Virus record (IMG/VR): IMGVR_UViG_2645727901_000019
Direction: 5' to 3' (one strand)
Source of the DNA: a virus
Taxonomy: Duplodnaviria; Heunggongvirae; Uroviricota; Caudoviricetes
DNA length: 5,635 bases
Part shown: piece by piece, positions 79 through 5,635 of the stretch
Numbering within the stretch: position 1 is the stretch's first letter
Layout of the letters: each line of letters begins with the position of its first letter
Translations under genes and position numbers: made by a program
Notes under the pieces: model-generated
The model's database searches: none
What the model saw: the letters and a program-made list of their open reading frames with translations, nothing else
What the model was told of the DNA's origin: nothing

Positions 79-152
79 GTTGGAGTCATTACCTTGCCTT
101 ACAACAGTATATTGAATGGAATTTAATTCAAAAATACGGCGAAGCTGAAGGA

Positions 153-314
153 ATGGGAAGAGCGCTGTTTCTTTATCAGAAAATGCTCACTACTTCCCCT
201 GATAAAGGTTTCATTCTTTCAGATATGGGTCGAGAAGGGCTTGAAATCCTTCTGGATGAAATTATTAACGAAATGAATACTCATGGCATGCAATCCGAAA
301 CAGATATTAAGTAA
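153..314 (+). CDS. Possible small hypothetical protein (53 aa)
   Basis: First ATG of a frame-0 ORF open from 36 to TAA 312-314 (MGRALFLYQKMLTTSPDKGFILSDMGREGLEILLDEIINEMNTHGMQSETDIK). GAAGGA lies directly against the ATG, so SD spacing is poor. Low-GC segment. Weak call. Confidence 0.25.
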   Translation: MGRALFLYQKMLTTSPDKGFILSDMGREGLEILLDEIINEMNTHGMQSETDIK

Positions 315-324
315 AAGGGACCAC

Positions 325-573
325 ATGACCGTTATCGAGTATATCCAGGAAAATCCAGATTGCAGTAGAGAAGATATATCCCTCGCACTTGGAAGAAGCG
401 CAACTTCTATCAGTAATGAATTATCACGGTTATTGTGGAATGGGTTAATAGTACGAACTGGAGAAAAAAACAAAATGATTCTGTACTGCGTAAACAATCT
501 GCCGTTTGGATACAGCAATCCCCTAAGTGTTATGTTCAACCAGTTACTTAAACAGGTAAGAAATGGCAACTGA
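325..573 (+). CDS. Small winged-helix-turn-helix DNA-binding protein (82 aa), function unknown
   Basis: ATG 325 preceded by AAGGGA (315-320). Translation MTVIEYIQENPDCSREDISLALGRSATSISNELSRLLWNGLIVRTGEKNKMILY... has the helix-turn-helix-wing pattern of MarR/ArsR-like wHTH proteins (recognition-helix candidate SISNELSRL, wing IVRTGEKNKMILY). An in-frame ATG at 283 lacks an SD. Lies in the low-GC segment. Confidence 0.6.
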   Translation: MTVIEYIQENPDCSREDISLALGRSATSISNELSRLLWNGLIVRTGEKNKMILYCVNNLPFGYSNPLSVMFNQLLKQVRNGN

Positions 574-880
574 CTCACAACTAACCATAGAAACGGCCCT
601 GAATGTCGGCCTGGCGCTCCTTGGTTATTTTTACATCGTGTTCTGCAGCGGACGGTGGCTGTCGCTGTTGTTCCTGAAAAAATGGAATAAACGCCGTAAG
701 CAGGATGAACGCCAGAAGGCAATGAATGCGTTTTCCGAAGCCTTCGGAATTGACGGCATGGAACCAGGGGATCCAGCTCGCGCAATCAGCAGAGGGGGTG
801 TAGTAATCCTTGTATATCGGAGTGAAGAGAAAAATGACGATCACAAAACAACGAGTAGAAAAAATCATATATCGCCATGA
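563..880 (+). CDS. Small membrane protein (105 aa): one long hydrophobic helix then a basic/charged tail
   Basis: ATG 563 with AGGT 5 nt upstream; overlaps the wHTH stop (TGA 571-573) by 11 nt. Residues ~11-38 (TALNVGLALLGYFYIVFCSGRWLSLLFL) are hydrophobic, followed by KKWNKRRKQDERQK. Codon usage resembles neighbouring genes. Confidence 0.5.
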   Translation: MATDSQLTIETALNVGLALLGYFYIVFCSGRWLSLLFLKKWNKRRKQDERQKAMNAFSEAFGIDGMEPGDPARAISRGGVVILVYRSEEKNDDHKTTSRKNHISP

Positions 881-1148
881 AATGGGACTGAACAGCGATG
901 TCACTGCCGAAGAGGTTTATGACCTGGCTGTACTGGCGCTGAATTTATCAAATATCGCAAACCTGAAGCGATACGAGCTTGATATGGATGGTTGCGACTC
1001 GTGCGGTCAGGATTGTGGCGCAGATATGACTGAAAATCCTGATGGTGATTATGTCCTGTTTGATGACGTGGTTAAGTTGTTTGAATTTGATACAACCACT
1101 CAAAAGTTAGAAATCCCGGCAAAGGAGGCTGCCAGTGAGCAAGATTGA
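834..1148 (+). CDS. Hypothetical acidic protein (104 aa)
   Basis: First ATG (834) of the ORF, with GGAG (819-822) and GAAGAG upstream; stop TGA 1146-1148. Alternative start ATG 882 lies 1 nt after the upstream stop (ccATGAaATGg). Acidic, Cys-containing segment DMDGCDSCGQDCGADMTENPDGDY. No family recognised. Confidence 0.55.
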   Translation: MTITKQRVEKIIYRHEMGLNSDVTAEEVYDLAVLALNLSNIANLKRYELDMDGCDSCGQDCGADMTENPDGDYVLFDDVVKLFEFDTTTQKLEIPAKEAASEQD

Positions 1149-1177
1149 CTATCAGGCACTGCGCGAGGCGGCGGAAC
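1119..1177 (+). repeat. Direct repeat copy A (59 bp): RBS plus first ~14 codons of an Ea22-like N-terminal module
   Basis: Base-by-base alignment with 1804-1862 gives 50/59 identical (~85%). Identity starts abruptly at GCAAAGGAGGC and decays after GCGGAAC. Confidence 0.85.
1122..1128 (+). promoter_or_regulatory. Consensus Shine-Dalgarno AAGGAGG for GTG start at 1135
   Basis: Perfect AAGGAGG with 6-nt spacing to GTG; embedded in the 3' end of the upstream CDS. Confidence 0.6.
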
Positions 1178-1320
1178 AGGCAACGCAAGATGAATGGGTA
1201 GCATATATTTTGCCGGGTCATAACGGCATTTATCCTGCGCGCACGTCTGAGGGTAGGCATTGTGCGGATACTTTATTGACTGGCCTGGCGTCTGTCAGGG
1301 GCGGGAGAGCATCAACATGA
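1135..1320 (+). CDS. Ea22-like N-terminal module, truncated (61 codons); possibly a gene fragment or pseudogene
   Basis: GTG 1135 sits 6 nt after a perfect AAGGAGG (1122-1128). N-terminus MSKIDYQALREAAEQATQDEW is paralogous to the N-terminus of the 1820-2305 product (MSEINYQALREVAERA). The ORF stops at TGA 1318-1320 after a tail that does not resemble the paralogue. Confidence 0.45.
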   Translation: MSKIDYQALREAAEQATQDEWVAYILPGHNGIYPARTSEGRHCADTLLTGLASVRGGRAST

Positions 1321-1823
1321 GCATCAGAACCTACGCAGTGAATTGCAATGACGCATGGCTAAACACCGAAGGTGATGACATCTCCGGCTCATACGTTAAG
1401 TACAAAGACCATCAGGAAGTGGTTGCCGCTCTTGAGGCCAAGTGCGCGGCGCTGGCAGCGGAGAATGCGGGAATAAAGTCTGCAATTCCAGAATCACGGG
1501 ATATTGAAGATGACAATGACAATATGGATGACGTATCTCTCGCGGAAGACTTCGGGTTCAATCATGCAATAGAACGGATGAGGAGACAGATACCTGAAAC
1601 GCCAACCACTGATGCTTTCCTGGCTGAAGTCCGGGCGCAGGGGGTGGATGCTGCTATAGAAGCTGCAAAAAATCTGGTGGCCCAAGAATATGAGTATAAG
1701 GATTTCAAAGCGGCGCAGAGTGATTGCTGTATGTACCCTGGTTCAGACCTGGTAGGGAAGGTTGAAATGACTGAGTGGTTAGTTGACTTTGCTGCCCAGC
1801 TTCGCAAAGGAGGCAACCAGTGA
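1317..1823 (+). CDS. Hypothetical protein (168 aa); possibly the displaced C-terminal part of an Ea22-like gene
   Basis: ATG 1317 overlaps the upstream TGA (ATGA); GGGAGAG SD 7 nt upstream. The segment HQEVVAALEAKCAALAAEN resembles PETVLALLDERERN in the 1820-2305 paralogue. Stop TGA 1821-1823 overlaps the next GTG start (GTGA). Confidence 0.6.
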   Translation: MSIRTYAVNCNDAWLNTEGDDISGSYVKYKDHQEVVAALEAKCAALAAENAGIKSAIPESRDIEDDNDNMDDVSLAEDFGFNHAIERMRRQIPETPTTDAFLAEVRAQGVDAAIEAAKNLVAQEYEYKDFKAAQSDCCMYPGSDLVGKVEMTEWLVDFAAQLRKGGNQ

Positions 1824-1862
1824 GCGAAATTAATTACCAGGCACTGCGTGAGGTGGCGGAAC
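1804..1862 (+). repeat. Direct repeat copy B (59 bp), paralogous to 1119-1177
   Basis: Same alignment as copy A. AAGGAGG and the GTG start are at identical relative positions in both copies. Confidence 0.85.
1807..1813 (+). promoter_or_regulatory. Consensus Shine-Dalgarno AAGGAGG for GTG start at 1820
   Basis: Perfect AAGGAGG with 6-nt spacing to GTG; paralogous to the site at 1122-1128. Confidence 0.65.
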
Positions 1863-2305
1863 GTGCAATTCCAGCAATGGAACGCCTGTTAATGTTGCCA
1901 GCTGATGATGACTTGTTAAGTGAACAGGAACTTAAAGATTACGGTGTGGATATTGATGCGCTCAACGCCTTCAAATTTCTGACCGGACCAGAAACCGTGC
2001 TGGCACTGCTGGATGAACGGGAAAGAAACCTGCAATACATCAAAAGCCGCGATCAGGAGAACGAGGATATTGCGCTAACGGTAGGGAAGCTGCGCGTTGA
2101 GCTTGAAGCAGAAAAACAGCGGGCAAAAGTTCTATTTATGGAAAATGCTCGGCTTAAGTCAGGCATAGCCGGTCTGATACACCTCGGTATTCGATATGCA
2201 GATGTTGAGGTCATGAAAATTGCTGGAGATGCCCAGCTTTCTACCCCATGCACTGACAGCATCATAAACAGCATTGCAACAGGCATTCGCATCAAAGGAG
2301 AGTGA
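1820..2305 (+). CDS. ead/Ea22-like family protein (161 aa) with a coiled-coil-like centre
   Basis: GTG 1820 sits 6 nt after AAGGAGG (1807-1813). N-terminus MSEINYQALREVAERA and internal PETVLALLDERE match my recollection of lambdoid-prophage Ea22-like proteins. Heptad-like charged stretch KLRVELEAEKQRAKVLFMENARLK. Stop TGA 2303-2305. Confidence 0.75.
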   Translation: MSEINYQALREVAERAIPAMERLLMLPADDDLLSEQELKDYGVDIDALNAFKFLTGPETVLALLDERERNLQYIKSRDQENEDIALTVGKLRVELEAEKQRAKVLFMENARLKSGIAGLIHLGIRYADVEVMKIAGDAQLSTPCTDSIINSIATGIRIKGE

Positions 2306-2306
2306 T

Positions 2307-2822
2307 ATGGCGTTAACACACCACGAACTCTGTCAGATTGCGTACAAGTTCCTTAAGCGCAACGGGTTCAAGGTTTGCTTTCATGACCGCTTTGTTGCTG
2401 TAACCAGTACCGGAGAACAGCCAGATGCTATGGGATTCAGAAATTCAGCATCATGCCTGATAGAGGCGAAGTGTTCTCGTGCTGACTTGTTGGCAGATAG
2501 AAAAAAGCGTTTCCGTAAAAATCCCTCACTTGGCATGGGCGACTGGCGATTCTTTATTAGTGAGCCGGAAATTATTTCAGTTGAGGATTTACCTCCCGGC
2601 TGGGGATTACTTCACGTTGTTAACGGAAGAGTACGGAAAGTACATGGATGGCCCAGGGGTAATTGCTGTTGGGGTAATCCTGACGATAAGCCATTTACTG
2701 GGAATAAGCAGGTTGAATGCGATTACATGTTATCTGCATTAAGGCGCATGGAGTTGAGAGGGCACCTTAATGAAATATATGACGGTGTGATTGTTAATAA
2801 GAAAGAAGGAAACGCGGCATGA
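2307..2822 (+). CDS. Putative PD-(D/E)xK-fold nuclease (171 aa; Hjc/VRR-NUC-like N-terminal core plus Cys/Trp-rich C-terminal region)
   Basis: ATG 2307 lies 1 nt after the upstream stop, with AAGGAG (2295-2300) upstream. Residues 5-60 show helix(E7)-PD(39-40)-x12-EAK(53-55): HELCQIAYKFLKRNGF...QPDAMGF...LIEAKCSRADL. C-terminal part includes GWPRGNCCWGNPDD. An upstream in-frame TTG at 2274 lacks an SD. Confidence 0.7.
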   Translation: MALTHHELCQIAYKFLKRNGFKVCFHDRFVAVTSTGEQPDAMGFRNSASCLIEAKCSRADLLADRKKRFRKNPSLGMGDWRFFISEPEIISVEDLPPGWGLLHVVNGRVRKVHGWPRGNCCWGNPDDKPFTGNKQVECDYMLSALRRMELRGHLNEIYDGVIVNKKEGNAA

Positions 2823-3577
2823 TCACTATTACCAAAGGGCGACTGCTGACAATCAAGCAGTGGCGCGAAACATACGGACCGGGTAGCAACGTTGTACTGC
2901 CAGCAGAAGAAGCGGAAGAACTGGCACGAATTGCACTGGTATCGCTGGAAGCAGAGCCGGTGGCAAAGATTATAGCTCATTACCCATTAGGAGTTGACGT
3001 AGGCAAACAAAAGTTCGTACAGGCCATTGGAGAGCTTCCTGACTTTGGCGGATATCTATTTGCCGCCCCGCCAGCGCCGGTAGTGCCGGAAGAAGCAACT
3101 CCGGAAAACGTAGAAATGCTCTCTGGCTATGTTTCCACGTACAAATTAACCGATAGCGAGCGCGATATTGCTGCCGAAATATGGAACGCCTGCCGCACCG
3201 CCATGCTTCAGTCCGGAAACTTTCGGGAAAGCAAGAATTCGTCAACCAATAATTTTCGGGAAATCCCGGAAGCGTCAACCAGCTCTCCGGTAACTCCGGC
3301 TCTTCTGCCTGGTGGTTTCACCATTGAGGAGGCGAAGGAATTACATGAAGACCTGGTACGCAGCCACATAAGCAAGGCCTTAAGTGGCGAAAAGATGAAA
3401 AAGAAAGATCGCGATGCTGATTTGCGCTGGATTCATGGCGTTATAGTTCAGGCAGCGTGGTTTGTAAAAGCATCACTGGAGCAGAATGCACTATCGGGCA
3501 ACTCTCCGGTAACTCCGGATGGTTGGATAAGCTGTAGTGAGCGAATGCCGGACGACAGGCAGGAGGTGAATCAATGA
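2819..3577 (+). CDS. Hypothetical prophage protein (252 aa) with an internal repeat-rich linker; ends just after a PDGWISCSERMPDD motif
   Basis: ATG 2819 overlaps the upstream TGA (ATGA); GAAGGAAA SD. Contains a 33-bp tandem repeat (FRESKNSSTNN / FREIPEASTSS) and a 17-bp perfect direct repeat in frame 219 bp apart. The C-terminal motif resembles, from memory, the start of a DUF551-type prophage domain. Stop TGA 3575-3577. Confidence 0.7.
   Translation: MITITKGRLLTIKQWRETYGPGSNVVLPAEEAEELARIALVSLEAEPVAKIIAHYPLGVDVGKQKFVQAIGELPDFGGYLFAAPPAPVVPEEATPENVEMLSGYVSTYKLTDSERDIAAEIWNACRTAMLQSGNFRESKNSSTNNFREIPEASTSSPVTPALLPGGFTIEEAKELHEDLVRSHISKALSGEKMKKKDRDADLRWIHGVIVQAAWFVKASLEQNALSGNSPVTPDGWISCSERMPDDRQEVNQ
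3221..3286 (+). repeat. Imperfect 33-bp tandem repeat (2 units) inside the 2819-3577 CDS
   Basis: TTTCGGGAAA recurs at 3221 and 3254 and CGTCAACCA at 3240 and 3273, both with period 33 bp (in frame, 11 codons). Confidence 0.6.
3283..3299 (+). repeat. 17-bp perfect direct repeat, copy 1 (CTCTCCGGTAACTCCGG)
   Basis: Identical 17-mer recurs at 3502-3518, 219 bp (73 codons) downstream in the same frame of the same CDS; flanking bases differ on both sides. Confidence 0.9.
3502..3518 (+). repeat. 17-bp perfect direct repeat, copy 2 (CTCTCCGGTAACTCCGG)
   Basis: See copy 1. Encodes SPVTP in both places (SSPVTPALLPGG vs NSPVTPDGW). Confidence 0.9.
3561..3568 (+). promoter_or_regulatory. Strong Shine-Dalgarno AGGAGGTG for the 27-codon peptide gene
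   Basis: AGGAGGTG lies 5 nt upstream of ATG 3574, inside the last codons of the preceding CDS. Confidence 0.55.
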
Positions 3578-3657
3578 GCTGGCCTGATGCAATCGTAACT
3601 CTGGGGGTGGTATTCGCAGCAGCGTTTGTTGTGTTCTCGATTTGTCGATGGGGATAA
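3574..3657 (+). CDS. Small hydrophobic single-helix peptide (27 aa), not in the supplied ORF track
   Basis: ATG 3574 overlaps the upstream TGA (ATGA); AGGAGGTG (3561-3568) lies 5 nt upstream. Translation MSWPDAIVTLGVVFAAAFVVFSICRWG, stop TAA 3655-3657. Fills the gap between two coupled genes exactly. Confidence 0.45.
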   Translation: MSWPDAIVTLGVVFAAAFVVFSICRWG

Positions 3658-3661
3658 CCAC

Positions 3662-3904
3662 ATGTTCGCTTTGATTCAACGCGGTCAGATATACACGGAC
3701 AGAGCTGGATACCCCGTGGTGATTACTCGCATCACTGAGCACTCAGTGTTCTTTCGACGGATGGACGGACGATCCGGGCGGGTACGCATTGGTGAGTTAA
3801 ACTGCCTGTTCGAACATATTGACCACCAGGAGTACCGCAAAATTCTCGCGGACACTGAGCAGGAAAAGCACCTGAAAAAATTACGAGCCATAAAAAGGAA
3901 GTAA
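3662..3904 (+). CDS. Small hypothetical prophage protein (80 aa)
   Basis: ATG 3662 lies 4 nt after the peptide stop; GGGGA upstream. Translation MFALIQRGQIYTDRAGYPVVITRITEHSVFFRRMDGRSGRVRIGELNCLFEHIDHQEYRK... Possibly a DUF4222-like small prophage protein (recollection only). ORF-track start 3626 is TTG without an SD. Confidence 0.6.
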   Translation: MFALIQRGQIYTDRAGYPVVITRITEHSVFFRRMDGRSGRVRIGELNCLFEHIDHQEYRKILADTEQEKHLKKLRAIKRK

Positions 3905-3907
3905 AGA

Positions 3908-4042
3908 ATGAATAAAGCATTTGAACGATGGGTCCACCAACGTTACGGCAATCGCTATGACCTGACGCGAGATGTTGACGGCTTCTACTGTCGTGAAGTT
4001 GTGAAGCGAATGTTTGAAGTGTGGTGCCACTGCCGTGGATGA
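3908..4042 (+). CDS. Small Cys/His-containing protein (44 aa), unknown function
   Basis: ATG 3908 with AAGGAAG SD (3895-3901), 3 nt after the upstream TAA. Translation MNKAFERWVHQRYGNRYDLTRDVDGFYCREVVKRMFEVWCHCRG; stop TGA 4040-4042. Below the ORF-track size cut-off. Confidence 0.45.
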   Translation: MNKAFERWVHQRYGNRYDLTRDVDGFYCREVVKRMFEVWCHCRG

Positions 4043-4060
4043 AAATTTTATGAGGTTGGC

Positions 4061-4315
4061 ATGCAGACAATCATCTATCAGATAACCCCCAGCAAATGGT
4101 GTACGGAGAGAGTCCTCATTGCATCAACAGGGCTAAAGCCTGGCACCATTGAGCGGGCAAGAAGAAAGTCATGGATGCAGGGAAAAGAATACCGCCATTA
4201 CGCTGTAGAAGGTGATCCGGGGCACTACAGTGAATGCCTGTACAACATCGAAGAAATTATGCGATGGATCGAAAACCAGAAACAACCAGGTGCCAAAAAT
4301 GCAAGTTCCGGTTAA
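4061..4315 (+). CDS. Excisionase-like protein (84 aa; recombination directionality factor candidate)
   Basis: Small basic protein immediately upstream of the integrase on the same strand. Translation ITPSKWCTERVLIASTGLKPGTIERARRKSWMQGKEYRHYAVEG...YNIEEIMRWIE matches my recollection of enterobacterial prophage excisionase-like proteins (DUF1233-type). GAGG 5 nt upstream of ATG 4061. Confidence 0.65.
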   Translation: MQTIIYQITPSKWCTERVLIASTGLKPGTIERARRKSWMQGKEYRHYAVEGDPGHYSECLYNIEEIMRWIENQKQPGAKNASSG

Positions 4316-4348
4316 CCTGTTAATGCTCCTGGACGTCTGGGAGGTTTA

Positions 4349-5635
4349 ATGAGTAACGCATCATACCCGACAGGCGTTGAAAACCATGGAGGATCACTCC
4401 GTATATGGTTTCACTATAATGGCAAACGTGTCAGAGAAAACCTCGGTGTTCCTGACACAGCCAAAAACCGGAAGATCGCTGGTGAACTTCGCACTTCCGT
4501 TTGTTTTGCAATCAGAATGGGGAGTTTCGACTACGCCGCGCAGTTCCCTAATTCCCCTAACCTGAAACACTTTGGTCTGGGAAAAAGAGAGATAACCGTT
4601 AAGGCACTTTCGGAAAAATGGTTGGACCTTAAGAAAATTGAGATTTGTGCGAATGCACTTAATCGTTACCAGTCAGTAATTAAAAACATGTTGCCTATGT
4701 TGGGTGAGAAAAAACTGGTTTCATCCATAACAAAAGAGGATTTACTTTTCGCAAGGAGAGATTTGTTGACCGGTTACCAAAAGCTTTCTAATGGAAAGAT
4801 TTCTTCCATAAAAGGGCGCTCAGTGGTCACAGTAAACTACTATATGACAACCATAGCTGGAATGTTTCAATTTGCAACAGATAATGGTTATACCTCAGGA
4901 AACCCATTTAACGGTCTGGCACCCTTAAAAAAGTCCAAGGTAAAACCAGATCCTCTCACCCGTGACGAATTTATTCGTTTTATTGAAGCTTGCCGTCATC
5001 AACAAACAAAAAACCTGTGGATTCTCGCTGTATACACGGGTATTCGTCACGGGGAGCTGGTATCGCTGGCATGGGAAGATATAGATCTTAAAGCAAGGAC
5101 TATAACCATCCGTAGGAATTATACAAAACTTGGCGAATTCACTCCACCAAAAACCGATGCTGGCACCGGAAGGACAATTCATCTGGTTCAACCAGCTATT
5201 GATGCTCTTAAAAGTCAGGCGGAAATGACCATGCTTGGAAAGCAACATTCTGTAGAGGTAAAGCAGAGGGAATATGGGAGAAGTACTGTGCATAAATGCA
5301 CTTTTGTTTTTAGTCCTCAGGTAATAAAACAGCGGCAGTTTTCCGGACCGCACTATAAGGTTGACTCCATCAGGGAGTCATGGACAAGTATCTTAAAACG
5401 CGCAGGTCTGAGACACAGAAAATCGTACCAATCCAGGCATACTTATGCATGCTGGTCACTTGCCGCTGGAGCTAATCCTAGTTTTATCGCAAGCCAGATG
5501 GGCCACACAAACGCACAAATGGTATTCAATGTTTACGGAGCATGGATGAAAGACAACAATCACGAACAGATAGAACTCCTTAACAAAAGACTATCTGAAA
5601 GTGTCCCATGTATGCCCCATAAGAAAGCTGGGTAA
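4349..5635 (+). CDS. int: Tyrosine site-specific recombinase / phage integrase (428 aa)
   Basis: GGGAGG SD 5 nt upstream of ATG 4349. Catalytic-domain signatures: box I Arg in TGIRHGELVSLAWEDIDL, Lys in PPKTDAGTGRTIHL, box II YQSRHTYACWSL, then GHTNAQMVFNVYGAW with the tyrosine nucleophile. N-terminal ~70 aa resemble an arm-binding domain. Stop TAA is the last codon of the window. Confidence 0.95.
   Translation: MSNASYPTGVENHGGSLRIWFHYNGKRVRENLGVPDTAKNRKIAGELRTSVCFAIRMGSFDYAAQFPNSPNLKHFGLGKREITVKALSEKWLDLKKIEICANALNRYQSVIKNMLPMLGEKKLVSSITKEDLLFARRDLLTGYQKLSNGKISSIKGRSVVTVNYYMTTIAGMFQFATDNGYTSGNPFNGLAPLKKSKVKPDPLTRDEFIRFIEACRHQQTKNLWILAVYTGIRHGELVSLAWEDIDLKARTITIRRNYTKLGEFTPPKTDAGTGRTIHLVQPAIDALKSQAEMTMLGKQHSVEVKQREYGRSTVHKCTFVFSPQVIKQRQFSGPHYKVDSIRESWTSILKRAGLRHRKSYQSRHTYACWSLAAGANPSFIASQMGHTNAQMVFNVYGAWMKDNNHEQIELLNKRLSESVPCMPHKKAG

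Follow-up and report, generated by a model that had tools for sequence, protein, structure and literature searches.

MmcB of Caulobacter has been described as a PD-(D/E)XK endonuclease that protects from mitomycin C and cisplatin (PMC9578287); it is reported to be SOS-induced and has been proposed as a partner of translesion polymerases (PMC9578287; bioRxiv 10.1101/2022.06.10.495655). Hjc (PF01870), VRR-NUC, and NucS are likewise minimal PD-(D/E)xK nucleases. Here, we describe a gene whose product can be compared with all of these, found at positions 2307–2822 of a 5,635-nucleotide (nt) stretch of DNA from a member of the Caudoviricetes (IMG/VR virus record IMGVR_UViG_2645727901_000019; the whole stretch is called the window below). 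By profile and by predicted fold, the closest relative of its 171-amino acid (aa) product is SPO1766 (PDB 3dnx), the solved member of the MmcB-like family PF06319. An earlier note, made by inspection of the letters, had placed the gene at the head of a four-gene cassette that might serve in anti-phage or anti-plasmid defense; the nuclease fold has stood up to further analysis, and the cassette has not. The gene and its predicted active site lie as follows:

2307–2822, + strand: gene for the 171-aa PD-(D/E)xK nuclease-fold protein, with its ATG at 2307; predicted sister family of PF06319, without a model of its own
2415–2498, + strand: predicted active-site segment, comprising E37, P39-D40, E53-x-K55, and S57-R58-x-D60-x3-D64

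We think that the protein is probably an active, metal-dependent PD-(D/E)xK endonuclease that is made early and processes a structure or lesion on the entering or replicating DNA of the element that carries it. The assignment to the element's own DNA is the more tentative part of this reading, and we offer it as plausible, somewhat short of an even bet. If the reading is true, the kind of protein is an ordinary one, that is, a small PD-(D/E)xK nuclease, but the family it represents is large, uncharacterized, and poorly handled by the available resources.

The open reading frame (ORF) at 2307–2822 is a real and widespread gene. Its exact 171-aa product is encoded on at least 1000 contigs, a word-index search returned 308 relatives across the Enterobacterales (all named ones being “hypothetical”), and a profile of 33 relatives drew in 3233 clusters (50% identity) at E ≤ 0.001, and 2435 at E ≤ 1e-10. 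The nuclease gene is present in ~910–928 of 5426 complete E. coli genomes (~17%), where presence was taken as ≥ 80% covered, and relatives are carried by 864 plasmids and by Stx, Kuttervirus, and Vibrio phages.

Searches of the protein against Pfam, NCBIfam, and PADLOC gave no family, and neither Pfam nor NCBIfam holds a model for its relatives. Among the PHROGs, it falls in phrog_9263 and phrog_631, both without an assigned function, and has a weak match to phrog_5429 (“DNA repair protein”). Gene calling has also been a source of error. In four independent assemblies, RefSeq (PGAP) treats the intact 516-nt ORF as a pseudogene, recording its first 179 nt (2307–2485) as “hypothetical protein, frameshifted” (L001, 8214–8392; L007, 1501–1679; L224, 1501–1679; L225, 4001–4179), and the nuclease gene is therefore without a protein accession in those records. 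In GenBank phage records, the full 171-aa coding sequence is called.

The 171-aa protein is very probably of the PD-(D/E)xK fold, as judged from the order of the modeled core, the conserved catalytic residues, and a profile match to 3dnx. The AlphaFold model, built on a 33-sequence alignment, has a mean pLDDT of 82.9 and a pTM of 0.77. It comprises a helix (5–18), three strands (22–24, 41–45, and 48–54), a helix (58–64), a strand (80–85), two further strands, and a long helix (134–150) at the C-terminal end. The alpha-beta-beta-beta-alpha-beta core that the earlier note called for is seen around the predicted catalytic residues, with D40 preceding strand 2 and E53 and K55 on strand 3. P39-D40 (nt 2421–2426) and E53-A54-K55 (nt 2463–2471) are also where that note had put them. 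We regard it as very likely that the protein, whose fold is a known one, does cut DNA.

Conservation was counted over 102 divergent representatives of the family, which share the motif GExPD...[IV]E[CAV]KxSRxDFxxD. D40, D60, G78, and R81 are invariant (102/102); E37, E53, K55, D64, K67, and R70 are each found in 101 relatives, and position 27 is acidic in 101. H5 and W99 (100 each), G100 and E137 (99 each), S57 (94), R58 (93), R147 (91), and R146 (90) follow. The IECKSSRADFQAD motif of the nuclease aligns in 3dnx too. The glutamate of HELCQ (E7) had been taken as the helix glutamate of the catalytic arrangement, but among the representatives, 47 have E and 22 have D at this position; the residues conserved instead are H5, the acidic position 27, and E37.

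The part of the protein that had been described as a Cys/Trp-rich extension belonging to no placeable family belongs to the conserved nuclease domain. No cysteine of the protein is conserved, including the CC of GNCCWG. A Zn or Fe-S site was considered for this part and rejected for lack of conservation of C9, C50, C56, C120, C121, and C138 among the relatives.

Kinship with the MmcB-like proteins emerges only as the profile is broadened. A single-sequence phmmer search against the PDB gave only noise, and a first profile (A1) found 3dnx at E 0.69; the broader profile A2, built from 102 sequences, found it at E 8.8e-6, with the PDB chains of Hjc at E 0.11–0.15. The aligned fragment of 3dnx is itself PF06319 MmcB-like (E 1e-32), and a Foldseek search against viral models (BFVD) returned several matches named “MmcB-like DNA repair protein.” Weak matches to PF06319 were seen in 11 of the 102 relatives and weak matches to Hjc in 19 (best E 1.3e-4, sub-threshold). 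The window protein itself gave no match to PF06319 at E ≤ 0.1 and none to Hjc (PF01870) in the Pfam search.

No member of the family reaches the PF06319 gathering score of 22 bits, the best individually tested relative scoring 17.9 bits, and on sequence comparison we therefore place the 171-aa family outside PF06319, as a sister family of the MmcB-like proteins for which neither Pfam nor NCBIfam has a model. It is set apart by H5, E37, G76-x-G78, R81, W99-G100, E137, and R146-R147. The two also differ in where they reside, MmcB being a chromosomal SOS gene and the window nuclease belonging to a family borne by phages and plasmids. Matches to Hjc, VRR-NUC, or Mrr-like proteins had been expected. 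A weak similarity in profile and fold to Hjc, VRR-NUC, and NucS, which are of similar size, was indeed found, but it is much weaker than that to the MmcB-like proteins and reaches no family threshold, that of Hjc included.

The places where family members sit are varied. Viral loci were examined on 80 IMG/VR contigs encoding relatives at 38–75% identity, with neighbors taken from the same strand within 3 kb; bacterial neighborhoods come from look-ups of E. coli, plasmids, and contigs. An EaA-like gene lies directly downstream in 28 of the 80 viral loci, and a family without a Pfam match, possibly Ea22-like, lies just upstream in 25. Other neighbors include NinG (13/80), an integrase (12/80), NinB (10/80), and a DnaB-type helicase (9/80).

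The family occurs in strictly lytic as well as temperate phages, and its conservation within phage groups such as Kuttervirus is deep and looks vertical. In phage Vi01 the relative abuts the gp61 primase gene, and in Vibrio phage MAR10 it is placed after genes for a primase/helicase and an SNF2-type helicase. A Providencia prophage has the order Dam, an unnamed gene, a Lar-like gene, the relative, and RusA. NinG/Rap and RusA are, like the window protein, small nucleases of lambdoid accessory regions, and relatives of the window protein adjoin them, but they belong to unrelated folds and families.

On plasmids, one location is the leading region of IncF. A homologue with 66% identity is found there in the order ssb, DUF905, ParB-like, psiB, psiA, homologue, hok, DUF932, traM; it is co-oriented with ssb, psiB, and psiA, and its start overlaps the stop of psiA. 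This order, on the leading side of oriT/traM, was seen on pHNEP28_cfr and four other contigs. The homologue thus shares position and orientation with the recognized leading-region genes (ssb, psiB, psiA, ardA, and orphan methylases), a class of gene that phages and plasmids have in common as well (PMC11541004). No PD-(D/E)xK nuclease of this family is among the known leading-region functions, and it is position that suggests a role in establishment. On Pseudomonas and Acinetobacter conjugative plasmids, relatives lie near rdgC, orphan methylases, and ssb, one Pseudomonas conjugative plasmid having the relative near rdgC, an orphan methylase, and ssb alike. Of the 864 plasmids with a relative, 411 are typed as conjugative.

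The F plasmid itself has only 71 nt between psiA and hok (L223, 10706–10776) where pHNEP28_cfr has the homologue (L020, 4981–5470). Homology between the two resumes inside the last 24 nt of the homologue gene, which points to a deletion in F and not to an empty target site.

Two further observations on plasmids may be recorded here. About 290 plasmids of 50–110 kb have near-identical copies of the nuclease gene (95–100% aa identity), and many of these are typed as non-mobilizable; the non-mobilizable ones in this size range are probably phage-plasmids. A 62-kb E. coli plasmid (L225) has a copy at 4001–4516 near genes for a mobilization protein, TraL, and an LPD7-domain protein.

Nuclease activity and early expression of the gene are inferred here, as are, to an even greater extent, the substrate and the role. 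The protein would act as a stand-alone, single-gene module without dedicated subunits. It would be expressed early by the mobile elements that carry it, here from the lambdoid pL operon and elsewhere from phage replication or nin modules and plasmid leading regions. By analogy with MmcB and Hjc, its target may be a branched, stalled-fork, or damaged intermediate.

Several points weigh against this reading. Since the family stays below the PF06319 gathering score, the function of MmcB cannot simply be transferred to it. Every source calls its members “hypothetical,” and a literature search for the family found no paper, “MmcB-like” appearing only in passing mentions in genome annotations. The absence of the homologue from F indicates that the gene is dispensable for laboratory conjugation. 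The frequent EaA-like gene directly following in 28 of 80 lambdoid-type loci leaves room for a loose partnership, and the nuclease may have one with this mosaic family. Finally, the context fits an anti-defense role equally well because leading regions are enriched in anti-defense genes, a third of the most prevalent families there being uncharacterized (PMC11541004).

An anti-defense or establishment factor is accordingly the alternative that survives best, though we regard it as distinctly less probable than processing of the element's own DNA. Such a factor would be made upon DNA entry and would destroy or disable a component of the host that endangers the arriving element; its targets might be the nucleic acid of a defense system, a signaling molecule, or host DNA ends that feed RecBCD/SOS. 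The IncF homologue, with ssb, psiB, and hok around it and a start overlapping the stop of psiA, speaks for it, as do the plasmid homologues beside orphan methylases, ssb, and rdgC, the wealth of anti-defense genes and uncharacterized families in leading regions (PMC11541004), the occurrence of the family in both lytic and temperate phages, and the Providencia prophage copy that comes after Dam and a Lar-like restriction-alleviation gene. However, the closest characterized relatives are repair and resolution nucleases and not inhibitors, the lytic-phage copies sit in replication modules and not in early anti-defense clusters, F does without the gene, and the supplementary tables that accompany the leading-region study (PMC11541004) gave no entry for the family, whether by name or by accession.

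A broader proposal would make the family an unrecognized “establishment nuclease” common to conjugative plasmids and phages and, separately, the 27-aa ORF discussed below a new membrane micro-protein of lambdoid phages, including Stx phages. We put this forward as a speculative view with a minority chance of being right. The nuclease would be made at DNA entry, from a plasmid gene in the leading region that overlaps the psiA stop, or from a phage gene in an early operon or beside the primase; it would then either clear a host obstacle or process incoming single-stranded or newly replicated DNA. The place after psiB-psiA in IncF leading regions makes the family a concrete candidate for a plasmid-establishment or anti-defense function.

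A narrower variant of the DNA-processing idea is that the protein is an Hjc-type Holliday-junction or branch resolvase that finishes phage or plasmid recombination. We consider this unlikely: the weak Hjc similarity noted above is weighed against the genes for RusA and NinG that adjoin relatives of the gene, and their presence argues for a role other than junction resolution.

The idea that the nuclease is the effector of a multi-gene prophage defense or exclusion system, with the 252-aa, 27-aa, and 80-aa products as its partners, requires a closer look at the neighborhood, which is set out here:

1317–1823 and 1820–2305, + strand: two Ead/Ea22-like genes (Pfam PF13935), upstream of the nuclease gene in the same packed operon
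2819–3577, + strand: gene for a 252-aa mosaic protein, by sequence of the EaA/Ea22/DUF551 group; a neighbor of the nuclease gene and at most a putative partner
3561–3567, + strand: perfect Shine–Dalgarno sequence (AGGAGGT) for the 27-aa ORF, 6 nt upstream of its ATG and inside the last codons of the 252-aa gene
3574–3657, + strand: 27-aa hydrophobic, predicted single-pass micro-ORF, conserved and independent of the nuclease gene
3662–3904, + strand: gene for an 80-aa DUF4222 protein (Pfam PF13973, phrog_285), starting 4 nt after the 27-aa stop
4061–4315, + strand: excisionase, DUF1233/XisR-like (Pfam; RM12579 RefSeq annotation)
4349–5635, + strand: tyrosine integrase (Pfam; RM12579 RefSeq annotation), at the prophage end next to mlrA

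The four ORFs (2307–2822, 2819–3577, 3574–3657, and 3662–3904) encode 171, 252, 27, and 80 aa, as the earlier note had it, and its description of their spacing is exact: an ATGA overlap joins the first to the second and the second to the third, and a 4-nt gap precedes the fourth. The close packing of these genes beside an integrase, with its overlaps of stop and start, speaks for a defense system, as does the conserved small membrane protein among the proposed partners. Prophage accessory regions do carry defense genes, and the nuclease systems catalogued in PADLOC can also have a PD-(D/E)xK-type nuclease and lie in such regions near integrases.

The packing is not, however, a mark of these four genes. 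The upstream Ead/Ea22-like genes overlap in the same way (ATGA at 1317 and GTGA at 1820), and the gene preceding the nuclease has its stop (2305) 1 nt before the nuclease ATG; the coupling therefore extends beyond the proposed cassette. All called genes of the window are on the + strand. No promoter-like site was found on the + strand within the window and no Rfam family in a search of it, so that no internal promoter or RNA element marking off a cassette was found.

Over positions 94–5635, the window matches E. coli O55:H7 RM12579 with 100% identity, at a prophage end abutting mlrA/yohO; positions 1–93 have no match in that genome. Positions 2307–3904 are 100% identical to Escherichia phage PhiR5_1, which has, on the same strand, kil, gam, bet, exo, small ORFs, Ea22, the 171-aa gene, the 252-aa gene, DUF4222, a 44-aa ORF, xis, and int. 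Such a gene order is that of a lambdoid early-left (pL) operon running into xis-int. Tight packing beside an integrase is a trait of the whole of such an operon and should not be taken as the sign of a functional cassette.

Nor do the four genes stay together. The whole block 2307–3904, at ≥ 80% coverage, was found in 58 E. coli genomes versus ~910 with the nuclease gene, and the E. coli matches to it break at many points, leaving the nuclease gene alone, pieces of the 252-aa gene alone, or DUF4222 alone. The 121-nt junction that holds the 27-aa ORF is present in ~194–209 of the 5426 genomes. By tblastn, the 80 viral contigs with nuclease relatives contained fragments of the 252-aa protein in 10 cases; not one of the 80 contained the 27-aa, the DUF4222, or the 44-aa product. 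The co-occurrence on which the cassette depended thus fails in both sets; the genes occur independently.

PADLOC-DB returned no family for eight proteins of window 834–4042, the four cassette products included. Set beside the PADLOC defense systems, the window proteins have no model match and no conserved partner, and relatives of the nuclease are encoded by lytic phages and in the leading regions of plasmids; the proposed 252-aa partner is, moreover, a domain-deleted mosaic protein. The four genes are a chance neighborhood in a mosaic prophage operon and not a defense system, and the 252-aa, 27-aa, and DUF4222 genes are unrelated passengers of that operon. A role for the nuclease as a host-defense effector is unlikely because lytic phages have the gene and, on plasmids, it is part of the DNA that enters a recipient first, places that put it on the side of the conflict opposed to the host; the multi-gene form of the idea is highly improbable.

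Very improbable, too, is a selfish homing-type endonuclease that cuts empty sites and is patchy for that reason: presence or absence between conserved flanks (psiA-X-hok in pHNEP28 vs. psiA-71 nt-hok in F), many unrelated contexts at high nucleotide identity, and HNH homing endonucleases nearby in one phage would suit it, but the F comparison indicates a deletion and not an empty target site, lambdoid mosaicism accounts for the patchiness, conservation in groups such as Kuttervirus looks vertical, and the protein shows, outside its nuclease core, no further domain fit for separate DNA recognition.

The neighbors of the nuclease gene are informative in their own right. The 252-aa protein matches Pfam DUF551 (PF04448) only over profile positions 1–16 of 68, at residues 235–250 (region 3521–3577 of the window); the complete 68-position domain was not found in it, and its PHROG matches are patchy. 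Its first 44 aa and its C-terminal “TPDGWISCSERMP” match the 309-aa Ea22 of phage EC.W1-9, the middle being unrelated. It ends after DDRQEVNQ, where the Ea22 of EC.W1-9 runs on for ~55 Trp-rich residues, which on sequence we take to be the DUF551 core.

The 252-aa protein is a mosaic belonging to the EaA/Ea22/DUF551 group, from which the DUF551 core has been lost. Its end looks like the result of an internal deletion that kept the last codons together with the micro-ORF's ribosome-binding site. In L008, the DNA that precedes the micro-ORF shows that at least one other protein has the end “...WMPLPEPPQEVNQ*.” The DUF551-deleted allele is carried by ~194 E. coli genomes, including O104:H4, and E. 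coli matches to the gene break at many internal points. Shared PHROG matches had hinted at an N-terminal kinship between the 252-aa protein and the 104-aa protein encoded at 834–1148, and this was dropped when BLASTP found nothing.

The 80-aa protein is a clear DUF4222 member (E 8.2e-14; 51.3 bits vs. a cut-off of 27; profile positions 2–53 of 53). Its gene is common beside xis-int and is found without the nuclease gene in E. coli and after other upstream genes.

The 27-aa ORF is, on the evidence, a gene. Its product in the window is MSWPDAIVTLGVVFAAAFVVFSICRWG, and its consensus is M[ST]WP[DE]A...G..A....[FY]SICRW[GR]. It is exactly 27 codons long in 116 of 118 pattern matches on viral contigs, the other two being in-frame deletions. 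The string (A/G)GGAGGTGAATCA-ATGA is kept in 107 of the 118 occurrences and was seen in four different upstream contexts. Over 30 alleles, the median pS is 0.55 versus a median pN of 0.21 (mean ratio ~0.45), and the two commonest alleles lie between unrelated flanks. A chance ORF over a recombination junction was considered and rejected in view of the constant 27 codons, of pS exceeding pN, and of the unrelated flanks and different upstream contexts.

The same 27-codon ORF occurs in E. coli, in 933W and other Stx phages, and in a lytic phage resembling rV5. In every case, the gene before it is of the EaA/DUF551 type; the ORF travels with the ends of such genes and not with the nuclease. The RM12579 and PhiR5_1 records do not annotate it, its exact sequence is absent from a collection of 15 billion proteins, and in one genome a 40-aa ORF called by PGAP contains it. 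By its sequence, it is a gene for a conserved, hydrophobic, and mostly unannotated micro-protein, predicted to lie in the membrane.

Other lambdoid-type phages have unrelated short hydrophobic ORFs that overlap the EaA/Ea22 stop (30 aa at L003, 3950–4042; 40 aa at L006, 4442–4564). This suggests that a small membrane peptide after an ea gene is a recurrent arrangement.

Two observations concern the upstream part of the window. A 96-aa ORF at 283–573, which is unannotated in the RM12579 RefSeq record (there is a gap there), has sub-threshold winged-helix matches (MarR_2 and HTH_24). An Ead/Ea22-like gene is split into a 61-aa ORF (1135–1320; Pfam positions 1–45) and a 168-aa ORF in another frame (1317–1823; positions 48–138); the two halves are joined by an ATGA overlap, and a related locus in one RefSeq genome is called as a single frameshifted gene.

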